NCBI GenBank assembly: GCA_903895855.1
Contig: CAITVN010000238.1
Location: forward strand, 10,331-74,330
Reading direction: 5' to 3'
DNA length: 64,000 nt
From: Oligoflexia bacterium
GTDB lineage: Bacteria; Bdellovibrionota; UBA1018
The translations under genes and the position numbers were made by a program. The notes below the pieces were generated by a model. The model searched no databases. It was not told where the DNA came from and worked only from the letters and a program-made list of their open reading frames with translations. Positions 2,012-61,110 of the stretch are shown one piece after another. The number at the start of each line of letters is the position of its first letter. Within the stretch, counting starts at the first letter, position 1.

Positions 2012-3369
2012 TTTACTTCTATTTTCTTCTACTTCAGCTCACCCAAATGCTTGGGACGGCTGTGTTTGCCTCAGACGAAGAGGTAAGTCATGACTACGAG
2101 ATTGGTCGCGAAGAGGCAGTGTTTTTCTACAAGACTCAGAAGTGTGCGACGGCTTTAGAGAAGATCGAAGAGATTCAGGCCGAAAATCGCTCAGACTACG
2201 AGCTCTATAATCTTTCTGGCCTGTGCAAAACAGAATTGAAAGATTATGCAGGTGCCCAGCAGAGTTTTTTGAAAGCCCTTGATGTTTGTGATGACCCAGA
2301 AACCCGCGCCCTGATTCGCCTGAATATGGCTGAAACCTTGAAGGCTCAAAAAGATGTTGCGGGCAGTTTACAGCAGATCAGAAAGGCTTTGGCTGAGGCG
2401 CCGAATTCAGAAGTGGTCGCAAAGGCGGCCAGTGGCACAGGCGGTGCTGGGTTGGTGAAGAAGCTAAAATCCTCAAATGAAAAATCGCTAAGATTTTCAG
2501 GAAAATTCGCGGCCGGTACAACCTTTGATACCAATGCGTTGCTGCGAGCGGGGGGTAGTGAAAACGCTCTGAGCGTGTCATCACTCAAGGGCATGAGTGT
2601 GCCAGTGTCGGCCTCGGCTCGCGCAATCTTCTCTGACGACGGCGGTGGCATCTATGAGACGCCGTTAAAAATTTCTTATCAGCCCTACCTCACGAAAGAA
2701 TTGCGCACTTTGTCTGCAATTGATTTGGGAGCGGGATTCAACTCTCTATGGGTACTCAGTGGCTCGAAACGTGTGGGTATGGGGCTTTGGGGTCACGGAT
2801 TTTTTACCAATGCCAACGGTTATCAAGCGCTGTTGTGGGAGACTCGGCTTTCTCCGACACTGACTTTCGGCATCAGTGACAGCTCAAAGAAGAGAATCAC
2901 CATCAGCTTGCCTGTGAACTTGGGAAGATTTGCGAATGACTCTGAAACCTATTCGATTCGTAAGTCCTACACGAGGTTTGAGGTTGCTGCTGATTTGCGT
3001 GAGCCAACGACCGATGCCATTGCCGTGGGCGCAGGAGTTGGGGCCTTTCTTCACGAGACGGTTGGCGAACAAATGCAAAATTACGGTTTTAAGGCGTCAC
3101 CTCATCTTGCAAAACGCTTTTGGGGTCTATTTGATTTCAATGCGCAAGTTGATTACCGTTACTCGTATTTTCCAAACACTACCGAGGTGAGAAGTGATCA
3201 CTTTATTTCGGGTGGCTTAGATTTGTCGTCGCGATTTCTCAAAAATCTCATAGGAGAGAGTGCCCTCACCGGAGTTCTGGCGGTGGCATTTGAAAAAAAT
3301 ACGTCAACCCAAAGTGCCCAAACCTATTCACGTACGGTGCTTTCGTTGGGAGTTCAATATGATTGGTAG
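2008..3369 (+). CDS. TPR-repeat protein with C-terminal outer-membrane beta-barrel
   Basis: ATG 2008 overlaps the upstream TGA (ATGA); signal peptide; TPR helices (YNLSGLC, LNMAE); barrel ending in LGVQYDW. Confidence 0.7.
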   Translation: MIYFYFLLLQLTQMLGTAVFASDEEVSHDYEIGREEAVFFYKTQKCATALEKIEEIQAENRSDYELYNLSGLCKTELKDYAGAQQSFLKALDVCDDPETRALIRLNMAETLKAQKDVAGSLQQIRKALAEAPNSEVVAKAASGTGGAGLVKKLKSSNEKSLRFSGKFAAGTTFDTNALLRAGGSENALSVSSLKGMSVPVSASARAIFSDDGGGIYETPLKISYQPYLTKELRTLSAIDLGAGFNSLWVLSGSKRVGMGLWGHGFFTNANGYQALLWETRLSPTLTFGISDSSKKRITISLPVNLGRFANDSETYSIRKSYTRFEVAADLREPTTDAIAVGAGVGAFLHETVGEQMQNYGFKASPHLAKRFWGLFDFNAQVDYRYSYFPNTTEVRSDHFISGGLDLSSRFLKNLIGESALTGVLAVAFEKNTSTQSAQTYSRTVLSLGVQYDW

Positions 3370-4360
3370 GCAAAAATTCAGCAAAAGTAATATGAGAGAT
3401 TGTAGAAGAACGGCGCTAACCGTTACTCTGATTGGGTTGCTGGCGGTGATTTCCGTCTCACAGGCCGCTTCAGATTCTGTAGCGCCGCCCCAGGTGATAC
3501 ATGTCGGCACCCTCATTGCCGTCGAGGGAAGTGTTACCGTGATCAGAAAAAGTGATTCAGGTGAAATGCGAGAAATTGGCAAAGTGGCGCTTTCAATAAA
3601 CGACAGTGACCAGGTAGAGACTGGAGCCAGTTCAAAAGCTAAACTACTTTTTTCTGATCGATCACTTTTTCTTTTAGACTCAGATTCGGCCCTGCGATTT
3701 CACGGCGATAAGGATCTCTCTGAATACGAAGTGACTCGCGGAAAGGTTCGCGCTCTCGTTGGAAAGCGAAAACGAACGAATCGATTTGTCATTCGATCAC
3801 GGTCGGCGGTCATGGGTGTGCGGGGTACCGAGGTCGCCATTGGCGACGGCGAATTGGCCTGCGTTAGCGGCTCTTGCGAAATCGAAAACGGAAAAGAAAA
3901 TTGGACCTTAAAAAGCGGTGACTCTTGGAAAGAACAAGACGGCAAAGGTTCGGTTTCGAAGACCTCAAAAGAGGATATTGATCGACGTTTCTCTAACCCA
4001 AGATCAGAAAAACTCAAGTCGCAGCACGATGATGATCTCAAGGACCTGAAGAACTCGAAAACAACGTTCGCCAATCGGGCCAATGAAGCTCCTTCGGCCG
4101 ACCAAACTAAAGATCAAGGTGCAGTAGAGCCGATTAATAAGAACGATCTTGTCAATCTCGTTGAAGGTTCGACCCAATCTGAAGCTGAGGGAATACTTCA
4201 AGAAGCGGTAGACTTTGATCACAACCTGCATGAGTTGCCCCTCACTAGCCACCGAGATTTTCAGACAAGTTCAATGGGGGTAGATGTTGTGCACGAGCAA
4301 ATTGGCCGTAAGTTCAATTTTATTCTCGAGCAGCATGAGATTGCTCCAAATGTTAAATAA
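3359..4360 (+). CDS. FecR-domain periplasmic protein
   Basis: Motifs D-x-VETG..S.AKL.FSD.S...LDSDS and AVMGVRGTE typical of FecR-like beta domains; N-terminal signal/TM; start approximate. Confidence 0.8.
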   Translation: MIGRQKFSKSNMRDCRRTALTVTLIGLLAVISVSQAASDSVAPPQVIHVGTLIAVEGSVTVIRKSDSGEMREIGKVALSINDSDQVETGASSKAKLLFSDRSLFLLDSDSALRFHGDKDLSEYEVTRGKVRALVGKRKRTNRFVIRSRSAVMGVRGTEVAIGDGELACVSGSCEIENGKENWTLKSGDSWKEQDGKGSVSKTSKEDIDRRFSNPRSEKLKSQHDDDLKDLKNSKTTFANRANEAPSADQTKDQGAVEPINKNDLVNLVEGSTQSEAEGILQEAVDFDHNLHELPLTSHRDFQTSSMGVDVVHEQIGRKFNFILEQHEIAPNVK

Positions 4361-35779: not shown

Positions 35780-35846
35780 AAGCCCCTCGCCTGCTCAGTC
35801 TTTTAACTTGAGCTGCGAAGGGCTTCTTGCGATTGGGGGGGGGGCT
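35780..35846 (+). repeat. Copy B of the ~67-bp hairpin repeat
   Basis: 61/67 identical to 36821-36887. Confidence 0.9.
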
Positions 35847-35911: not shown

Positions 35912-35952
35912 TTGACTCTTTTTATTAGTCATATTACTCTTTAAAAGAGTCA
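35912..35952 (+). promoter_or_regulatory. Promoter with two palindromic operators upstream of the wHTH gene
   Basis: tgactctttttattagtca and ttactctttaaaagagtca (21-bp period); TTGACT-17-TACTCT. Confidence 0.65.
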
Positions 35953-36287
35953 TGATTATATCAGCCCTTTTTGGAAGTGAAACCGCCGAGAAAGCCCTCC
36001 TCTACTTAGAGAACTACGGCTCCGGCTATCCCAGGGGGATCGCAAGAACCTTTGGTTTGGCGGTCGGACAAATCCAAAAGCAACTCGAAAAGTTCGAGCG
36101 TGAAGGAGTTCTTGCGAGCCGACTCGTTGGGCGTACTCGCGTCTATGAGTGGAATCCCAGATGCTTCTATCTCGCTGAATTAAGAGGAATACTTAGCAAA
36201 TCACTCAAACAGCTGCCACCGCCGATTATCGAGAAATTCTTCAGAGAACGCACTCGCCCTAGAAAAAAGGGGAAACCCCTTTTATGA
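35952..36287 (+). CDS. Winged-helix DNA-binding protein (putative antitoxin/regulator)
   Basis: LFGSETAEKALLYL..YPRGIARTFG..IQKQLEKFE.EGVL.SR.VGRTRVY. Confidence 0.8.
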   Translation: MIISALFGSETAEKALLYLENYGSGYPRGIARTFGLAVGQIQKQLEKFEREGVLASRLVGRTRVYEWNPRCFYLAELRGILSKSLKQLPPPIIEKFFRERTRPRKKGKPLL

Positions 36288-36820
36288 GCGCGATTTCAGA
36301 AATAACTTCACTAGAAGAAATGGGAGCGATCGTCTGCCAGGCGTTAAAAAATCGGGATGTCGAAGCGTTTCTTTCGGGTGGCGCCGTTGTTTCAATTTAT
36401 ACTCAAAACAAATACGAAAGCTTCGACTTAGATTTTATTACCTTTGGCGACCGTAAAAAGATTAAGATAATCATGGAAGAACTTGGCTTTAAGCAGGACA
36501 AGTCGAGATTCTTTATCCACCCAAGTTCCAAATATTTTGTCGAGTTTCCGGGCACAAGCGTCGCAATCGGCGATCAAGCAATCACCGAGTTTGCGGAGCG
36601 AAAAACTGGGACCGAAGTATTGCGATTATTGACACCCACAGATTGCATCAAAGATCGCCTTGCTTCATATATTCACTGGAAAGATCAACAAGCCTTAGAT
36701 CAGGCCGTATGGGTAGCGAAATCCCAACCGTTCAATAGAGTAAAGGTTCAGGATTTTTGCACGAAAGAAGGAAATCGAGCAGCCTACGATGACTTCGCAA
36801 GTCGCCTTCGTGAAAAGTGA
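36284..36820 (+). CDS. Nucleotidyltransferase-fold protein (putative toxin)
   Basis: LSGGAVVSIY...SFDLDF motif; TPTDCIKDRLA; ATGA coupling to the wHTH gene. Confidence 0.7.
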   Translation: MSAISEITSLEEMGAIVCQALKNRDVEAFLSGGAVVSIYTQNKYESFDLDFITFGDRKKIKIIMEELGFKQDKSRFFIHPSSKYFVEFPGTSVAIGDQAITEFAERKTGTEVLRLLTPTDCIKDRLASYIHWKDQQALDQAVWVAKSQPFNRVKVQDFCTKEGNRAAYDDFASRLREK

Positions 36821-36887
36821 AAGCCCCTCGCCCGCCAAGTCTTTGAACTTGAGCTGCGAAGGGCTTCTTGCGATTGAGAGGGGGGCT
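36821..36887 (+). repeat. Copy C of the ~67-bp hairpin repeat
   Basis: aagcccctcgcccgccaagtctttgaacttgagctgcgaagggcttcttgcgattgagaggggggct, starting right after the stop codon. Confidence 0.9.
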
Positions 36888-56001: not shown

Positions 56002-57612
56002 ATGAATCATCAAGACTTTGAGTGGGACTTCGTGATCGTTGGCTCTGGTTTCGGAGGGAGCGTCTCGGCGCTTCGTTTGACCGAAAAGGGTTATAAAGTT
56101 TTAGTCATTGAAAAAGGAAAACGTTTTGGTCCTGATGACTATGCCGTCACCAACTGGAATCTCTCACGGTACCTCTGGCTTCCCCTTTTGAGGTGCTTTG
56201 GCATTCAAAAGCTCACCCTCTTTTCAAACGTCCTGATTTTGAGCGGCGTGGGCGTGGGTGGCGGCTCTTTGGTCTATGCTAACACCCTACTCGAACCCGG
56301 CGATGAATTTTATCAGTCGTCGGCTTGGTCTAGTCTAGGTGATTGGAAAAAAGAACTATCAATTCACTATCAGACAGCAAAAAAAATGCTAGGGGTCGTA
56401 AAGAACCCGCACCTCACGTTCATCGATCACGAAATGAAAGCGATTGCTGACCAGCTCGGCAAAGGCGACACCTTCAAACCTTCAGATGTCGGAGTTTATT
56501 TCGGCACCAACGGCAAAACAGTTCCTGATCCGTTCTTTAATGGTGAGGGTCCGGCGCGAACTGGCTGTAAACTCTGCGGTGGTTGTATGGTTGGATGTCG
56601 GCACGGGGCAAAAAACACGCTCGACAAAAACTACCTCTACTTGGCTGAGAAAAAAGGGGCAAAGGTCATGCCCGAGACTGAAGTTTTGAATCTCATACCT
56701 GATGAAGGAACCGGCAAATCGGGTTGGACTTTAGAAACCTGCAGTTCAACGGCTTGGATCAAGTCAACTACTCGCAATCGAATTCGTGCAAAAAAGGTCG
56801 TACTTTCTGGCGGCGTCTTAGGAACAGTGAGTCTTCTGCTGAAGTGCAAAAAAATCACTGAATCGCTGCCCAGTTTGAGTCAAGCACTCGGCTTGAGTGT
56901 GCGCACCAATAGCGAGGCCCTCTTGGGAGTTACGGCCAAGCATGCTTCTGGTGAACGCAATTACAGTGAAGGGGTCGCCATCACCTCGGTGTTTCACGCT
57001 GACGAACACACGCATATCGAGCCTGTTCGTTATCCAAAAGGCTCAAGCTTTATGCGTCTGCTCACTGCCCCCATGGTTGACGGTGGGCCAGCATGGCTTC
57101 GCACATTCAAAATGTGCTACGGCATAGTCGCCCACCCCATTGATTTTTGTCGATCTTATCTCAAGTGGGGTTGGGCTGAAAACACCGTGATTTTCTTAGT
57201 CATGCAGACCCTCGACAATAAGATGAATTTGACCCTTGGGCGAAATCTCTTCACGGGGTTTATGAAAAAAATGACGACGGCACTTGATAAAGATGCGCCG
57301 CCGGTTCCTTCTACCATACCGATTGGACACGATGTTGCGAGGGCGTTTGCAAAGAGCGTTGATGGAATTCCGGCGAGTGCAGTCAATGAAGTGGTCTTGA
57401 ACATTCCGACCACCGCTCATATTTTGGGCGGTTGTCCAATTGGTGCTGACGCGAAGACCGGGGTAATTGATTCTCAACATCGGGTCTTCGGATATGAAGG
57501 CCTTTGGGTTTGCGATGGGTCGGCAATTCCCGCGAACTTGGGTGTGAATCCGAGTCTCACCATCACGGCCATGTCAGAACGAGCGATGAGCCTCATTGCG
57601 CCGAAAGGGTAA
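56002..57612 (+). CDS. ChoD-type GMC oxidoreductase (cholesterol oxidase-like)
   Basis: GSGFGGSV, GVGGGSLVYAN, CKLCGGCMVGC, AKNTLDKNYL, TAHILGG, LGVNPSLTITA. Confidence 0.9.
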   Translation: MNHQDFEWDFVIVGSGFGGSVSALRLTEKGYKVLVIEKGKRFGPDDYAVTNWNLSRYLWLPLLRCFGIQKLTLFSNVLILSGVGVGGGSLVYANTLLEPGDEFYQSSAWSSLGDWKKELSIHYQTAKKMLGVVKNPHLTFIDHEMKAIADQLGKGDTFKPSDVGVYFGTNGKTVPDPFFNGEGPARTGCKLCGGCMVGCRHGAKNTLDKNYLYLAEKKGAKVMPETEVLNLIPDEGTGKSGWTLETCSSTAWIKSTTRNRIRAKKVVLSGGVLGTVSLLLKCKKITESLPSLSQALGLSVRTNSEALLGVTAKHASGERNYSEGVAITSVFHADEHTHIEPVRYPKGSSFMRLLTAPMVDGGPAWLRTFKMCYGIVAHPIDFCRSYLKWGWAENTVIFLVMQTLDNKMNLTLGRNLFTGFMKKMTTALDKDAPPVPSTIPIGHDVARAFAKSVDGIPASAVNEVVLNIPTTAHILGGCPIGADAKTGVIDSQHRVFGYEGLWVCDGSAIPANLGVNPSLTITAMSERAMSLIAPKG

Positions 57613-57647
57613 ATGGCAGCAGAAAAACCCTTTTGGGCCTGCCTCCT

Positions 57648-57751
57648 TAAAATTCCGCATATAGAGTGGTTTATATCTGAATGCGGAATATGAATACTAT
57701 TGATAAAATTCCGCATACACATTAGATTTGGTTTCTATGCGGAATTTTATC
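57648..57751 (+). promoter_or_regulatory. Two tandem inverted-repeat operators (ATTCCGCAT-N20-ATGCGGAAT, 56-bp period)
   Basis: Second unit is a perfect 16-bp IR (57702-57717 / 57736-57751) containing the ATG. Confidence 0.75.
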
Positions 57752-59155
57752 GGCCGAGGTCAATACCTTAAATTATTCGAGACTGCCTGGGCACGCGATA
57801 GAAGTACCTTGATTGCGGTTTATGGTCGTCGTCGCGTCGGTAAAAGCTCTCTCATTCGGCAATTTGCCAACCGAAAACAAACGTTGTTTTTTGAGGGTTT
57901 AGAGGGTGAATCGACGGCAACGCAAATCGCACATTTTTTAAAGCAATTGAGCGTTCAGGTTTCTGAGCCCCATTTGGCTGACCTTAAGTATTCAGATTGG
58001 TCTGATGTCTTTGCGCTTTTGAGTCAAATTCTGAATCGCTATTCAGATGTCGTTCTGGTCTTCGACGAACTGACCTGGATGGCGTCTTCGAGAAATAAGC
58101 TGGTAAGTCTGATTAAAGTGTTTTGGGATCAACATTGGAAGTCTCACCCTCACTGTGTTCTGATCTTGTGTGGTTCGATTGCTTCGTGGATGGTCAAGAA
58201 TGTGGTCAGGTCGAAGGCCCTCTATGGCAGAATTTCTCATCAAATTTTAGTTGAGCCCCTAGATCCGAAGGAGGTGGCGCAATTTGTTGGTCAGGCAAGG
58301 GGTGAACAAGAGATTCTCGAGTATTTGTTGTGCTTTGGGGGAATTCCTCGCTACCTAGAGGAATTTGATTTCAAAAAATCGATTTCATGGAACATCGAGC
58401 ACGCTTGTCTTGCGCGGTCAGGATTTTTCTTTGAAGAGGCCGACAAAATTTTCTATAATCAGTTTAAAGAAACTCAAGTCTACAAAAAGATTGTTCATAC
58501 GCTGCTCAGTAAAGGCCCTTCATCTCTAGATATCTTAGCTAAAGCGACTCGTCAGCCCACGGGTGGAGGATTTAAGGCCTATCTTGAAAATCTTCAGAGT
58601 GCTGGAATTATTTCAGGGCTATTTCAAATTCATCATTGGAAAGTTTCAAAGCAGGCAAAATACTGTTTGTCTGATGAGTTTTTGGCGTTTGATGGAAAAA
58701 TTCTTGGGCCTGTACGTCAGTCGCTCAGTGCGCGCACTGAGAAAGGCGCCTTTTTAAAGTGGATTTCACCTCAATGGAACGCTTATTTGGGGTATGCCTT
58801 TGAGCGATTTTGTCAGAAGAATGCTCATCGAATTGCCGAACTTTTGGAAATCGATTCTCAAGTTAAAGGTGCGAGCGCCTTGATTCTCGAGGGATTAAAG
58901 AAAGGCACGAAGGCACAGTTGGATCTGGTATTCTTGAGACGAGATCCGGTCATTACGTACTGTGAGATCAAGTACAGTCGAAATCGATTAGGGCCAGAAG
59001 TCATTGCTGAAGTAGAGCAACGACATCAAAGAATACAGTGGCCTAAAGGTTGCTCTATTGAAAGAGTCTTGATCGTCAATCAAGAACCCGTCGATTCGGT
59101 CAGAAAAAGTGGCTATTTTCACCAGATTATTACAGCGAGTCAGCTGCTGAAGTAA
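57737..59155 (+). CDS. Archaeal-type AAA ATPase (ATPase_2) with wHTH and DUF234-like PD-(D/E)xK C-terminus
   Basis: FIGR, YGRRRVGKS, VFDE, LCGS, LYGR, GGIPRYL, G.AFE, QLDLV...CEIKY. Confidence 0.9.
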   Translation: MRNFIGRGQYLKLFETAWARDRSTLIAVYGRRRVGKSSLIRQFANRKQTLFFEGLEGESTATQIAHFLKQLSVQVSEPHLADLKYSDWSDVFALLSQILNRYSDVVLVFDELTWMASSRNKLVSLIKVFWDQHWKSHPHCVLILCGSIASWMVKNVVRSKALYGRISHQILVEPLDPKEVAQFVGQARGEQEILEYLLCFGGIPRYLEEFDFKKSISWNIEHACLARSGFFFEEADKIFYNQFKETQVYKKIVHTLLSKGPSSLDILAKATRQPTGGGFKAYLENLQSAGIISGLFQIHHWKVSKQAKYCLSDEFLAFDGKILGPVRQSLSARTEKGAFLKWISPQWNAYLGYAFERFCQKNAHRIAELLEIDSQVKGASALILEGLKKGTKAQLDLVFLRRDPVITYCEIKYSRNRLGPEVIAEVEQRHQRIQWPKGCSIERVLIVNQEPVDSVRKSGYFHQIITASQLLK

Positions 59156-59183
59156 ATGATTAACGTTGGGGGTCTCGAAGGCC

Positions 59184-59768
59184 TCATTGCGCCGAAAGGG
59201 TAAAACGCTGCTTCTTCTTTTCACAGCGTTTGGTTTTGAGATTGCACATCGAAAAACTGGCGGTGCCGACTAAGTTGGGCGGGTCTTTTTCGATTTTTCC
59301 AGTAACTGAAATTTGCGCCTGTTGAGATTCTCTCGGCCAGTCAGCCTCAGTGATTGAGTCAGGGTTGAGTTCTAAACCTTCTTGGGTGGTAAAGCTGACC
59401 AGAAAAGGTTCATTCAGGCCTACGGCGAGTAGCGGGTTGGTTGAAAAAACACTCAAGATGAGCTTGTCGCCTTTTTGTAGCAGTTTGAACCCGTAGGGGG
59501 GATTAGGGTCGATGGCAGTTCTTGGGTCAGGTTTCTCTTCGACCTCTTTTGGATTGATCGTGATCGGCTTTTGATTTTTGACCGTCACCTCGAATCGCTG
59601 CCCTTTCGGTATGGGTTTTCCAACCGGTACAGCTGATCCCGACCAGGGCTTAAGAAAAGGATTCGGGCTCGGCTCAGTCGCTGGTGAATTGGGTGCGCCC
59701 CAAGCTACTTGCCAAGTGAGCAGCAATGTCGTTAGGTTCAATAAAGCTAGGTGATGTTTTGATTTCAT
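59184..59768 (-). CDS. Hypothetical secreted protein
   Basis: Signal peptide ending AWG; C-terminal C-x5-C. Confidence 0.65.
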   Translation of the reverse strand: MKSKHHLALLNLTTLLLTWQVAWGAPNSPATEPSPNPFLKPWSGSAVPVGKPIPKGQRFEVTVKNQKPITINPKEVEEKPDPRTAIDPNPPYGFKLLQKGDKLILSVFSTNPLLAVGLNEPFLVSFTTQEGLELNPDSITEADWPRESQQAQISVTGKIEKDPPNLVGTASFSMCNLKTKRCEKKKQRFTLSAQ

Positions 59769-59809
59769 TTGGTTTCGCTCGGCACTCATGGGTACGTTAT
59801 GAATCAAGT

Positions 59810-60307
59810 ATGAGCGATGCCACCCCAACTGTGAAGAACAATTTTGAATCGGCCATTGCGGTTGCGTTGGGTCTGGCCGAAGAAGCAGCAAAGAGAGATG
59901 AAGTGCCCGTTGGTGCGATCGTGTTAGATTCGAACGGCCAGATTATCGGGCGAGGGGCGAACGATCGCGAGCAGACGCGCAATCCACTTCGACACGCTGA
60001 GATGATTGCGATTGAAGAAGCGGCCGGGTCGATGAAGTCGTGGCGTCTAACTGGGTGTACGTTGGTGGTCACGTTAGAGCCTTGTCTGATGTGCTTGGCC
60101 GCTGCACAACAAGCCAGAATTGGGCATGTGGTTTTCGCAGCCAAAGACCCCAAAGGCGGAGCCCTCTCTCTTGGGCACCATTTTCACGAAGACACTCGGC
60201 TCAATCACCGCTTCACGGTTGAGTATTTAGAAACCCCCGCTTGCGGCGAAGTATTGAGCCGGTTTTTCAAGCAGAAACGTTTGAACAAGGTAACTAACGA
60301 AAGCTAG
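59810..60307 (+). CDS. tadA: tRNA adenosine(34) deaminase
   Basis: EVPVGA, HAE, WRL, TLEPCLMC, DPKGG, LNH. Confidence 0.92.
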   Translation: MSDATPTVKNNFESAIAVALGLAEEAAKRDEVPVGAIVLDSNGQIIGRGANDREQTRNPLRHAEMIAIEEAAGSMKSWRLTGCTLVVTLEPCLMCLAAAQQARIGHVVFAAKDPKGGALSLGHHFHEDTRLNHRFTVEYLETPACGEVLSRFFKQKRLNKVTNES

Positions 60308-60309
60308 TG

Positions 60310-61110
60310 CTAAACGGATAGATTGAGCGGCTCAGCTTGCAGTTCGAGCATTCGTCGAGAAAATTCTTCTTCAGGCAGTAAGTATCGGCCTTGCCGGTAG
60401 AATCGACCAATTTTTCTCAATCGTTGCGTGATGGCCTTCATTGTTTTTTTCTTCGCTCGATCGAGCGGCGCGAATTTTAGACCCACTCCTTTGGGGTGAG
60501 TGACTGAGCTTTGACTTCTCCAGACGATTACGCCAGACATTTCCATTTGGGTTTTGAAAACTGAGAATCGAATGGTGATCCACTCGTCTTGCAGTAGGTC
60601 TTGTGAGATGCGAATAAAGACTCCGCCGGTACTCATATCGAGAATTTGGCCATCAGCTACAGCCCCGGTTGACCTGATAATCGTGGTCGGTATTTGTAGC
60701 CGGTATCGTGGATTACTCTCCCACCAACGAATCTTCGGCAGTAAATAAGGTACTGCGACTTCTCGGCCAATTCGAAAAATGAGATAAATCGAGACGATCA
60801 GCGAGCCAATAAAAATGCCAACGGGATTTTCGGCAGATCCATATTCGGCTAAGATAATGGCGACCGAATAATTGATTAGAATATTTGTCAGAAGAAAAAT
60901 GTACCAAGCCCAGCGTTTCATCTCCCAAAGTCCAAACCCGGTGAGCACCGCGATGAGAGATAAGAAGTAGTAAGAGGGAGATAGCAAGAGACGAACTAAC
61001 GACAATGCAGGTACCGTAAAAAGAACCAGCGATACGCCTAAGAAGGCGATCGGAAATGCAAAATACCCAATCGCTACGGCCTTTAAGAACCGTGTGGAAT
61101 ATTTCTTCAC
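60310..61110 (-). CDS. Membrane protein with C-terminal PilZ domain
   Basis: Four TMs, then RWWESNPRYR and DMSTGG (DxSxxG), G.G.KF. Confidence 0.85.
   Translation of the reverse strand: MKKYSTRFLKAVAIGYFAFPIAFLGVSLVLFTVPALSLVRLLLSPSYYFLSLIAVLTGFGLWEMKRWAWYIFLLTNILINYSVAIILAEYGSAENPVGIFIGSLIVSIYLIFRIGREVAVPYLLPKIRWWESNPRYRLQIPTTIIRSTGAVADGQILDMSTGGVFIRISQDLLQDEWITIRFSVFKTQMEMSGVIVWRSQSSVTHPKGVGLKFAPLDRAKKKTMKAITQRLRKIGRFYRQGRYLLPEEEFSRRMLELQAEPLNLSV

Follow-up and report, generated by a model that had tools for sequence, protein, structure and literature searches.

How does a single foreign gene come to lie between two convergent genes, each of which still ends in its own complete coding sequence? 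The question is raised by a locus in the Oligoflexia bacterium assembly GCA_903895855.1 (hereafter G000), of which a stretch of 64,000 nucleotides (contig CAITVN010000238.1, positions 10,331 to 74,330 of the forward strand) was analysed as the window; coordinates refer to the window unless a contig is named. Between the gene for a GMC-family FAD oxidoreductase and a convergent gene for a secreted-looking protein, the window carries one gene for a predicted ATPase-nuclease, here called the cargo, enclosed by a perfect 24-bp direct repeat. With moderate confidence, the locus is read as a 1567-bp horizontally acquired cassette that entered the 3'/3' junction of the two genes with a 24-bp target duplication, likely by host repair or recombination, and that brought in an autoregulated candidate defence gene.

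The two copies of the repeat, at 57590-57613 and 59181-59204, have a start-to-start spacing of 1591 bp and leave an insert of 1567 bp between them; extended imperfectly, the match reaches 31 nt at 90% identity. The left copy is the native 3' end of the oxidase open reading frame (ORF) at 56002-57612 on the plus strand and comprises its final seven codons and TAA (57610-57612; ...SLIAPKG*), and the right copy supplies the final six codons and TGA (TCA at 59184-59186; ...FTLSAQ*) to the minus-strand ORF at 59184-59891. Removal of the insert together with one 24-mer leaves two ORFs that overlap by 20 nt (57593-57612). The original prediction, made from the sequence alone, had described the repeat, its spacing, the two stop codons and the 20-nt overlap left by removing 1591 bp, and the coordinates and the arithmetic on the ORFs bear this out. 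Even with up to three mismatches allowed, the 24-mer has two matches in the window, with none of 100 shuffles yielding any, and a search of both strands of the source genome (244 contigs, 5.37 Mb) returned just these two copies. Read from the sequence, the 24-mer has no dyad symmetry.

Within the insert, a left spacer of 33 nt (57614-57646, plus strand; with a small hairpin at 57615-57643, and absent from the nearest related copy, in genome G002) is followed by two palindromes, the cargo gene (57737-59155, plus strand) and a right spacer of 25 nt (59156-59180, plus strand). The cargo gene is the sole real gene inside the insert. Neither an inverted repeat linking the two ends of the insert (repeat search) nor a motif shared between them was found, and no ORF tested between 53.5 and 63.6 kb had a Pfam match to an integrase or transposase, in agreement with the earlier description of a single cargo gene with no integrase, transposase or terminal inverted repeats.

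In each of its two reading frames the 24-mer looks native, because the encoded C-termini align with homologues in the relative G011: ...ERAMSLIAPKG* of the oxidase matches ...ERAMTRIAPKG* of its orthologue, and RFTLSAQ* of the right-hand protein aligns with RFGIDVQP*. The duplication thus did preserve both genes, as the original prediction claimed. Among family relatives with an oxidase orthologue (n=17), the junction was examined in 16, as the copy in G002 is cut by a contig end; the conserved oxidase C-terminal motif was found in 13 of the 16, and G034, G029 and G013 were dropped. In ten of these 13 relatives a convergent tadA-like deaminase gene is next to the oxidase and is followed by a PilZ gene, with gene ends overlapping by 6-62 nt in seven and separated by a gap of 3-29 nt in three. 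Since seven of the ten relatives overlap, overlapping convergent ends are, judged from these genomes, the normal state of the oxidase junction.

In G414 and G011 the divergent pair of secreted-protein and tadA-like deaminase genes is oriented oppositely to window 59184-60307, and the deaminase of the window is inverted with respect to 12 family relatives. Because G414 and G011 carry the same pair reversed, the G000 lineage must have inverted this two-gene block, and the 20-nt overlap and the insertion arose after the inversion or together with it.

The same junction is occupied in three relatives. In G315 an ATPase_2/DUF234 gene of 40% identity, which has a palindrome of its own, starts 35 nt past the oxidase stop, G022 has an AAA_14/DUF4143 gene into whose palindrome the oxidase ORF reads, and in G011 a 589-aa ORF intervenes; a repeat of the oxidase end was found in none of these three cases. 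In G022 (contig C17, locus L083) the oxidase ORF is about nine residues longer than those of the relatives and ends within the palindrome of the inserted gene, the stop region of which overlaps the deaminase gene by 20 nt. The arrivals in G000 and G315, compared by identity ranking only, look independent, because copies elsewhere are closer to the window protein than that of G315: seven matches from other genomes rank above it, and at six further loci identity to the protein of the window is 48-75%.

The reading of the segment as inserted foreign DNA is well supported, because its GC content deviates (43.4%, with 49-50% in both flanks and 47.2% in the genome), the G002 copy sits elsewhere, the distribution of the family is patchy, and the junction is normally uninterrupted. 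The G002 copy, from a genome of the same family, is the nearest relative (76% amino-acid and 72% nucleotide identity); homology begins with the first palindrome, takes in both palindromes and ends at the stop codon, and the flanking genes are unrelated. The core neighbours (oxidase, deaminase and PilZ) are just 40-65% identical to those of the genus of G002. At E≤1e-60 the cargo family was detected in 18 of 401 genomes of the phylum, G000 among them. Relatives on plasmids (154 of 72,556 records) and phages (8 of 50,697) are distant, with at most 31% identity, and may represent possible vehicles, not a source. A metagenome scan with the ATPase returned three loci of 49-53% identity, none with a tight repeat.

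The junctions were also inspected in four public lake-water sequencing runs (X1 to X4), all of one study and one of them possibly the source sample, with contigs built separately for each run. Contigs identical to the window at every position bridge the left junction in X1 (57431-57703), X2 (56672-57960) and X4 (57349-57909), and the right junction in X1, X2, X3 (59055-59331) and X4 (59128-59336). Neither junction showed a joint or a loose end in the contigs of the four runs. A gap in X3 at 57606-57623 was considered as an allele branch and rejected, as the depth there is only 2-3.5 and the right junction of X3 is intact. With the left junction spanned in three runs and the right in four, an assembly join, named beforehand as an outcome that would refute the insertion, is excluded.

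The cargo starts at ATG 57737, not at TTG 57728, according to the aligned N-termini of homologues, and encodes 472 amino acids comprising an ORC/STAND-like P-loop ATPase, a winged helix and a C-terminal PD-(D/E)xK domain. Pfam ATPase_2 (PF01637) matched at 61.7 bits (E 1.1e-16), above its cut-off of 33.2, and DUF234 (PF03008) weakly at 17 bits (E 0.0078), below its cut-off of 22.5, a family for which the G315 homologue scored 29.4. The hidden Markov model (HMM) of the PADLOC candidate system PDC-S27 (PDLC04984) matched across residues 1-434 with E 1.2e-86; no methyltransferase was found in the cargo by Pfam and PADLOC profile searches. Residues of Walker A (G30-K36) and Walker B (D110 and E111) as well as E356, E410 and K412 are invariant in all 39 aligned homologues, and D396 is kept in 38 of them.

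The AlphaFold model of the cargo (predicted local distance difference test, pLDDT, 94.2) gave whole-model fold matches to the archaeal ATPases 2qen and 2fna, to ORC/Cdc6 and to the STAND proteins NLR/CED-4. The last 140 residues, modelled alone (pLDDT 95.2), matched AF1548, McrC, MspJI, NucS/EndoMS and Card1/Can2, all of them PD-(D/E)xK nucleases, with modest scores (best E 4.4e-4, template modelling score 0.53). By domain profiles, residue conservation and fold matches alike, the original call of an ATPase, a winged helix-turn-helix and a PD-(D/E)xK domain was right. PDC-S27 is described, in the passages that concern it, as an abundant, unvalidated single-gene defence candidate in which an ATPase is fused to a PD-(D/E)xK domain (PMC12988326), and DUF234 is counted among the PD-(D/E)XK families in the corresponding part of PMC3424549. 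Most likely, as far as the models indicate, the cargo senses or switches in an ATP-dependent, ORC/STAND-like manner and has a PD-(D/E)xK nuclease as effector, which makes it a candidate for a single-gene anti-phage system.

Two palindromes, 56 nt apart, precede the cargo gene: a distal putative operator at 57647-57694, with arms AAATTCCGCAT and ATGCGGAAT, and a proximal one at 57702-57751, with perfect 16-nt arms. The proximal palindrome is interlocked with a promoter-like site on the plus strand (57700-57728, TTGATA-17-TAGATT), its left arm following TTGATA, its loop containing the -10 element TAGATT and its right arm the ATG start. This site has 9 of 12 consensus matches, and TTGACA or TTGATA is equally placed in homologues. 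Homologues down to 28% identity likewise have one palindrome or two immediately ahead of the start, with arm sequences that differ from paralogue to paralogue, and inverted repeats with 10 or more matched bp were found in the 150 nt upstream at 33 of 40 loci, compared with 3 of 40 control windows inside genes. At L034, in a genome_contigs record, the homologue (68% identical) seems truncated or frameshifted, its open frame comprising 227 aa, yet one palindrome remains upstream, and its arms are those of the window copy. The hairpin motif AATTCCGCAT was rejected as a dispersed repeat, as it occurs seven times in the genome, with about ten occurrences expected.

From this placement, both palindromes are read as putative promoter operators, not as element ends, and the cargo protein is probably the repressor of its own promoter, with the winged helix bound to these two private palindromes. 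Neither these family-wide operators nor the inversion of the right-hand pair figured in the original prediction. An integron gene cassette, which is a promoterless ORF followed by a 3' attC hairpin beside intI/attI, was rejected because the hairpins here are 5' of the ORF, overlap the promoter-like site and the start codon, and vary between paralogues.

From 41 homologous loci, 39 could be tested for flanking repeats, two having been dropped for short flanks. Tight long repeats were found at four of the 39, the window locus included, with insert sizes of 1591-1878 bp. At L045 the repeat has 32 perfect bp within about 60 bp (insert 1694 bp), at L050, where a convergent ORF has it as its 3' end, it has 32 perfect bp within at least 75 bp (insert 1742 bp), and at L039 it matches at 23 of 24 positions (insert 1878 bp). 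Two more matches of 14-16 bp, about 1 kb off, may be due to chance or may bound larger units. Of the 38 homologous loci other than that of the window, only three thus have tight long repeats.

The G000 genome was further scanned for exact repeats of at least 18 bp at a spacing of 300-10000 bp. At L097 (C163:1655-3530) a 27-bp perfect repeat surrounds a single AAA_14+DUF4143 gene (2092-3372, minus strand) and spans the TAA of the left gene together with the adjoining stop of a convergent DUF2079 gene; the left gene encodes an HNH domain and is a member of a 34-copy family in G000. At L098 (C224:93127-94938) the repeat around an AbiEi/AbiEii pair is perfect over 52 bp, reaches 66 bp if one mismatch is allowed, and corresponds to the 3' end of a GNAT acetyltransferase gene; the Pfam matches of the pair include no nuclease domain. 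Close to it, a 34-bp repeat (98710/99794) encloses one 378-aa ORF of higher GC. In the window itself, a perfect 31-bp direct repeat (35805-35835 and 36846-36876; about 70 bp imperfect, hairpin-forming) bounds a unit of 1041 bp that lies between an AAA_14/DUF4143 gene and a 530-aa gene; its two small ORFs (35952-36287 and 36284-36820) have no Pfam match.

A 7.9-kb island at L100 (C75:5266-13166), with a 30-bp direct repeat and a tyrosine integrase beside the right copy, is a classical integrative element. An AAA_14-type ATPase gene at L099 (C97:3756-5210) has a copy of an operator palindrome on each side, and the 21-bp perfect repeat found there, 1434 bp apart, was rejected as a target duplication, as it is the second copy of the gene's operator palindrome; a 23-bp repeat on C216 was rejected as an islet, as it is located in two paralogous epimerase genes. 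The repeats of the repeat-flanked cassettes in G000 are unlike in sequence and variable in length, the cargo comes with and without nucleases, and no common core or end motif was seen by eye among the other cassettes. A DNA transposon or insertion sequence (IS) was rejected for the window locus on account of the absent inverted repeat between the ends, the absent transposase and the repeat lengths of 24 to at least 75 bp across cassettes.

The source genome (5.4 Mb) contains 71 DUF4143 matches of AAA_14 type and seven ATPase_2/DUF234 genes, in total 78 defence-candidate genes, which is an unusually large expansion for one genome. Because identities to the nearest paralogue are low (median 44.7%, with just two pairs above 90%, at about 92%), the set is best read as a large and old expansion with no recent burst. 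An array at 32-37 kb, which the original prediction assigned to the same ATPase class, turned out to consist of two AAA_14+DUF4143 genes, which are similar in architecture, belong to a different Pfam family and are not detected with the cargo protein as query.

On these grounds, the following course of events is proposed. A self-contained expression cassette, made up of two operators, a promoter and one ORF, would have been acquired horizontally and would have entered the genome at the 3'/3' junction of the oxidase and the convergent secreted-protein gene, the ends of which overlapped by 20 nt. In the process 24 bp of the target would have been duplicated, so that each gene kept its own complete 3' end. 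The likely cause is break repair or recombination by the host, not an element-encoded recombinase: a break with widely staggered ends may have taken up foreign DNA, or a donor copy may have arrived by one homologous and one illegitimate join. Selection would then have retained only those events that spared both neighbours. A host-side route is favoured because the signature is independent of cargo and variable in length.

Several observations weigh against this account. As no empty site was seen at the nucleotide level, insertion together with duplication is something that we infer. The DNA search of 60 relatives included no genome of the same genus, the genus being represented in the genomes searched by the species of G000 alone; the right-hand gene had no DNA-level match, with the protein as query the best relatives were 24-33% identical and located elsewhere, and a metagenome scan with the 235-aa right-hand protein gave 229 pattern matches and no relative. 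The four sequencing runs show the occupied form only, and their contigs, which drop rare variants and cannot show rare alleles, contain no joint that skips the insert; being of one study, the runs give no independent population evidence. The junction partner in G000 is not that of most relatives, the pair being inverted. Tight repeats are absent from 35 of the 39 homologous loci, and six paralogues in G000 have no repeat of at least 12 bp within 800 bp. The repeat, with its 24 bp, is shorter than the >30 bp by which Furuta et al. 2010 (PMC2853133) excluded site-specific recombination among insertions of restriction-modification (R-M) genes. With regard to autoregulation, the promoter match is not above chance (four sites found, 3.0 expected), and a weak shuffle control gave 10 bp in one or more of 20 shuffles at 19 of 40 loci. 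With regard to defence, the role is taken over from PDC-S27, which itself has candidate status only in the passages describing it (PMC12988326).

The alternative that survives best, which we nevertheless regard as unlikely, is a non-autonomous cassette resembling a cis-mobilisable element (CIME), with the 24-mer as the core of an attachment (att) site and a tyrosine or serine recombinase that acted in trans to integrate a 1591-bp circle at the oxidase 3' end. A length of 24 bp is within the usual range of att cores, the very cases that the >30 bp threshold was set to exclude, but the 24-mer is present nowhere else in the genome, lacks dyad symmetry and differs in sequence from the repeats of the other cassettes, which range from 24 to at least 75 bp in length. 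A repeat at the 3' end of a gene regenerates that end, as att sites often do, and the classical island on C75 demonstrates a tyrosine integrase beside a 30-bp flanking repeat in the same genome; in or near the insert, however, no recombinase was found among the ORFs tested, nor does the locus present a core common to other sites or a tRNA. The ATPase_2/DUF234 gene of G315 and the AAA_14/DUF4143 gene of G022 at the same junction count in its favour, yet they came without a repeat of the oxidase end. In the contigs of the four runs there is neither a circle nor an empty joint, which is a weak test.

Mobilisation by the gene's own nuclease, as put forward in the original prediction, is very improbable. 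The ATPase-nuclease would cut its target with a wide stagger and insert its own gene, which would explain the family expansions. The nuclease site of the cargo is conserved and apparently intact, its winged helix is DNA-binding, and Furuta et al. speculated, in the part of their report concerned, that double-strand breakage made by the cargo underlies long target duplications (PMC2853133), but the AbiEi/AbiEii pair, with no nuclease among its Pfam matches, bears the same kind of flanking repeat. Tight long repeats recur at the four family loci and around one AAA_14/DUF4143 gene, against the 35 homologous loci without them. The 78 such genes of G000 (71 DUF4143 and seven ATPase_2) would fit a proliferating element, yet the age of the paralogues shows no sign of recent copy-and-paste. 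The insert ends have no motif or inverted repeat in common with each other or with the G002 copy, and the palindromes are at one end only, in the promoter, where they behave as operators. Apart from the fact that a nuclease is present and the family large, nothing speaks for self-insertion, and the wider claim that this ATPase class travels as autonomous cassettes is unsupported, given the repeat-free loci and the AbiE pair.

A slim chance of the same order is given to the broader proposal that PDC-S27 and PDC-S01 genes are autonomous single-gene selfish elements, not (or not only) defence genes, which would bind their own palindromes, cut gene ends with a wide stagger and insert themselves. 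If true, this would provide both a mechanism for insertion with long target duplication and an explanation of the 78-copy expansion.

No more credible are two unrelated steps, in which a 24-bp tandem duplication first uncoupled the overlapping ends and foreign DNA landed later between the copies. Each step is ordinary in itself, foreign DNA can land safely between convergent 3' ends, and the same junction took repeat-free insertions in G315 and G022; two events would however be needed at the same 24 bp, and the tight repeats at three further family members and around other small cassettes would be left unexplained. That the assembly of a metagenome bin was wrongly joined at a short repeat has a negligible probability, for although the genome is a 244-contig, 93%-complete assembly, separately assembled run contigs span both junctions without a differing letter.

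The left target gene, with Pfam GMC_oxred_N/C matches, is cholesterol-oxidase-like, and its match to NCBIfam NF058674 has E 1.2e-187 but 624.7 bits, under the 850-bit cut-off. The right target gene belongs to no known family; its ORF is open to 59891, and its start is likely the Met at 59768, preceding a signal-like segment, which gives 59184-59768 on the minus strand. It is followed by the tadA-like CMP/dCMP-type deaminase gene (59726-60307, plus strand), the real start of which is probably at about 59834, because homology begins only near residue 37-47, and by a PilZ-domain gene (60310-61110, minus strand), a neighbour conserved in the family. A tRNA search of the locus found no tRNA gene, and no Rfam family was above threshold, the best match being a sub-threshold miRNA hairpin (26 bits vs 57) that was treated as chance.

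Small defence genes move between genomes far oftener than known mobile-element machinery explains. Insertions with long target duplications were catalogued for restriction systems by 2010, and their signature is seen outside such systems at the window locus, at three further family members, and at an AAA_14/DUF4143 gene and an AbiE pair of the same genome. Because PDC-S27, AAA_14/DUF4143 and AbiE loci have it in common, this argues for a general, cargo-independent insertion route. The loci of 1.6-1.9 kb are compact test objects, each with one gene, its own promoter and operators (putative) and exact junctions, and the paralogue-specific palindromes offer a handle on the control of abundant uncharacterised ATPase-nucleases.

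In R-M controller (C-protein) operators and autoregulated toxin-antitoxin promoters, paired palindromes overlap the gene's own promoter. The window locus is alike in this respect, and it differs in that the presumed regulator is a domain within the effector protein itself, with binding predicted. By analogy, the paired palindromes over the promoter suggest a control of the dose of a dangerous nuclease on entering a new host. The minimal mobile elements described in Neisseria are moved by homologous recombination of their flanking DNA and are not known to leave a target duplication. With these, the oxidase junction shares varied accessory genes between the same conserved neighbours (G000, G315 and G022) and the lack of mobility genes, whereas the window locus has a target duplication. 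CIMEs, and islets that lack an integrase and are flanked by attL and attR, likewise combine a short direct repeat at the 3' end of a gene with the absence of an internal recombinase; the window locus differs from CIMEs by a 24-mer without a core common to other sites, by the lack of a tRNA target and of an integrase remnant, and by being a one-gene cassette.

With PDC-S27 (ATPase_2 PF01637 and DUF234 PF03008; COG1672) the cargo has in common the match to the family HMM and the fusion of an ATPase to a PD-(D/E)xK domain. Flanking repeats and private operators are unmentioned in the passages on this family in PMC12988326 and PMC3424549; the cargo described here has both, the operators being putative.

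The closest known phenomenon is the insertion of R-M genes with long target duplication. Such insertion of restriction genes was reportedly described in 2000. In the relevant sections of Furuta et al. (PMC2853133), these insertions contain no other mobile genes, their repeats are unique and in many cases cover a start or a stop site, and a single mcrA gene and inversions adjoining R-M genes are among the cases; >30 bp is the working threshold, and 19-26 bp are quoted for IS1630. Compared with the cases in these sections, the cargo of the window is a PDC-S27 ATPase-nuclease and not an R-M system, which reflects the scope of that screen and not the mechanism; the 24-bp repeat is below >30 bp and within the 19-26 bp of IS1630; and the published cases were defined by a genome with the empty site, whereas the window locus was recognised from its sequence anatomy. 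Among the ORFs tested between 53.5 and 63.6 kb, no mobility gene is in or beside the insert, and the repeat is not multi-copy. As far as those sections describe them, the R-M insertions and the window locus have in common a defence-type nuclease gene without integrase or transposase, repeats (in the window presumably derived from the target) that are unique in the genome and span a stop codon, intact neighbours, a deviant GC content, an adjacent inversion and the occurrence of a single-gene case.

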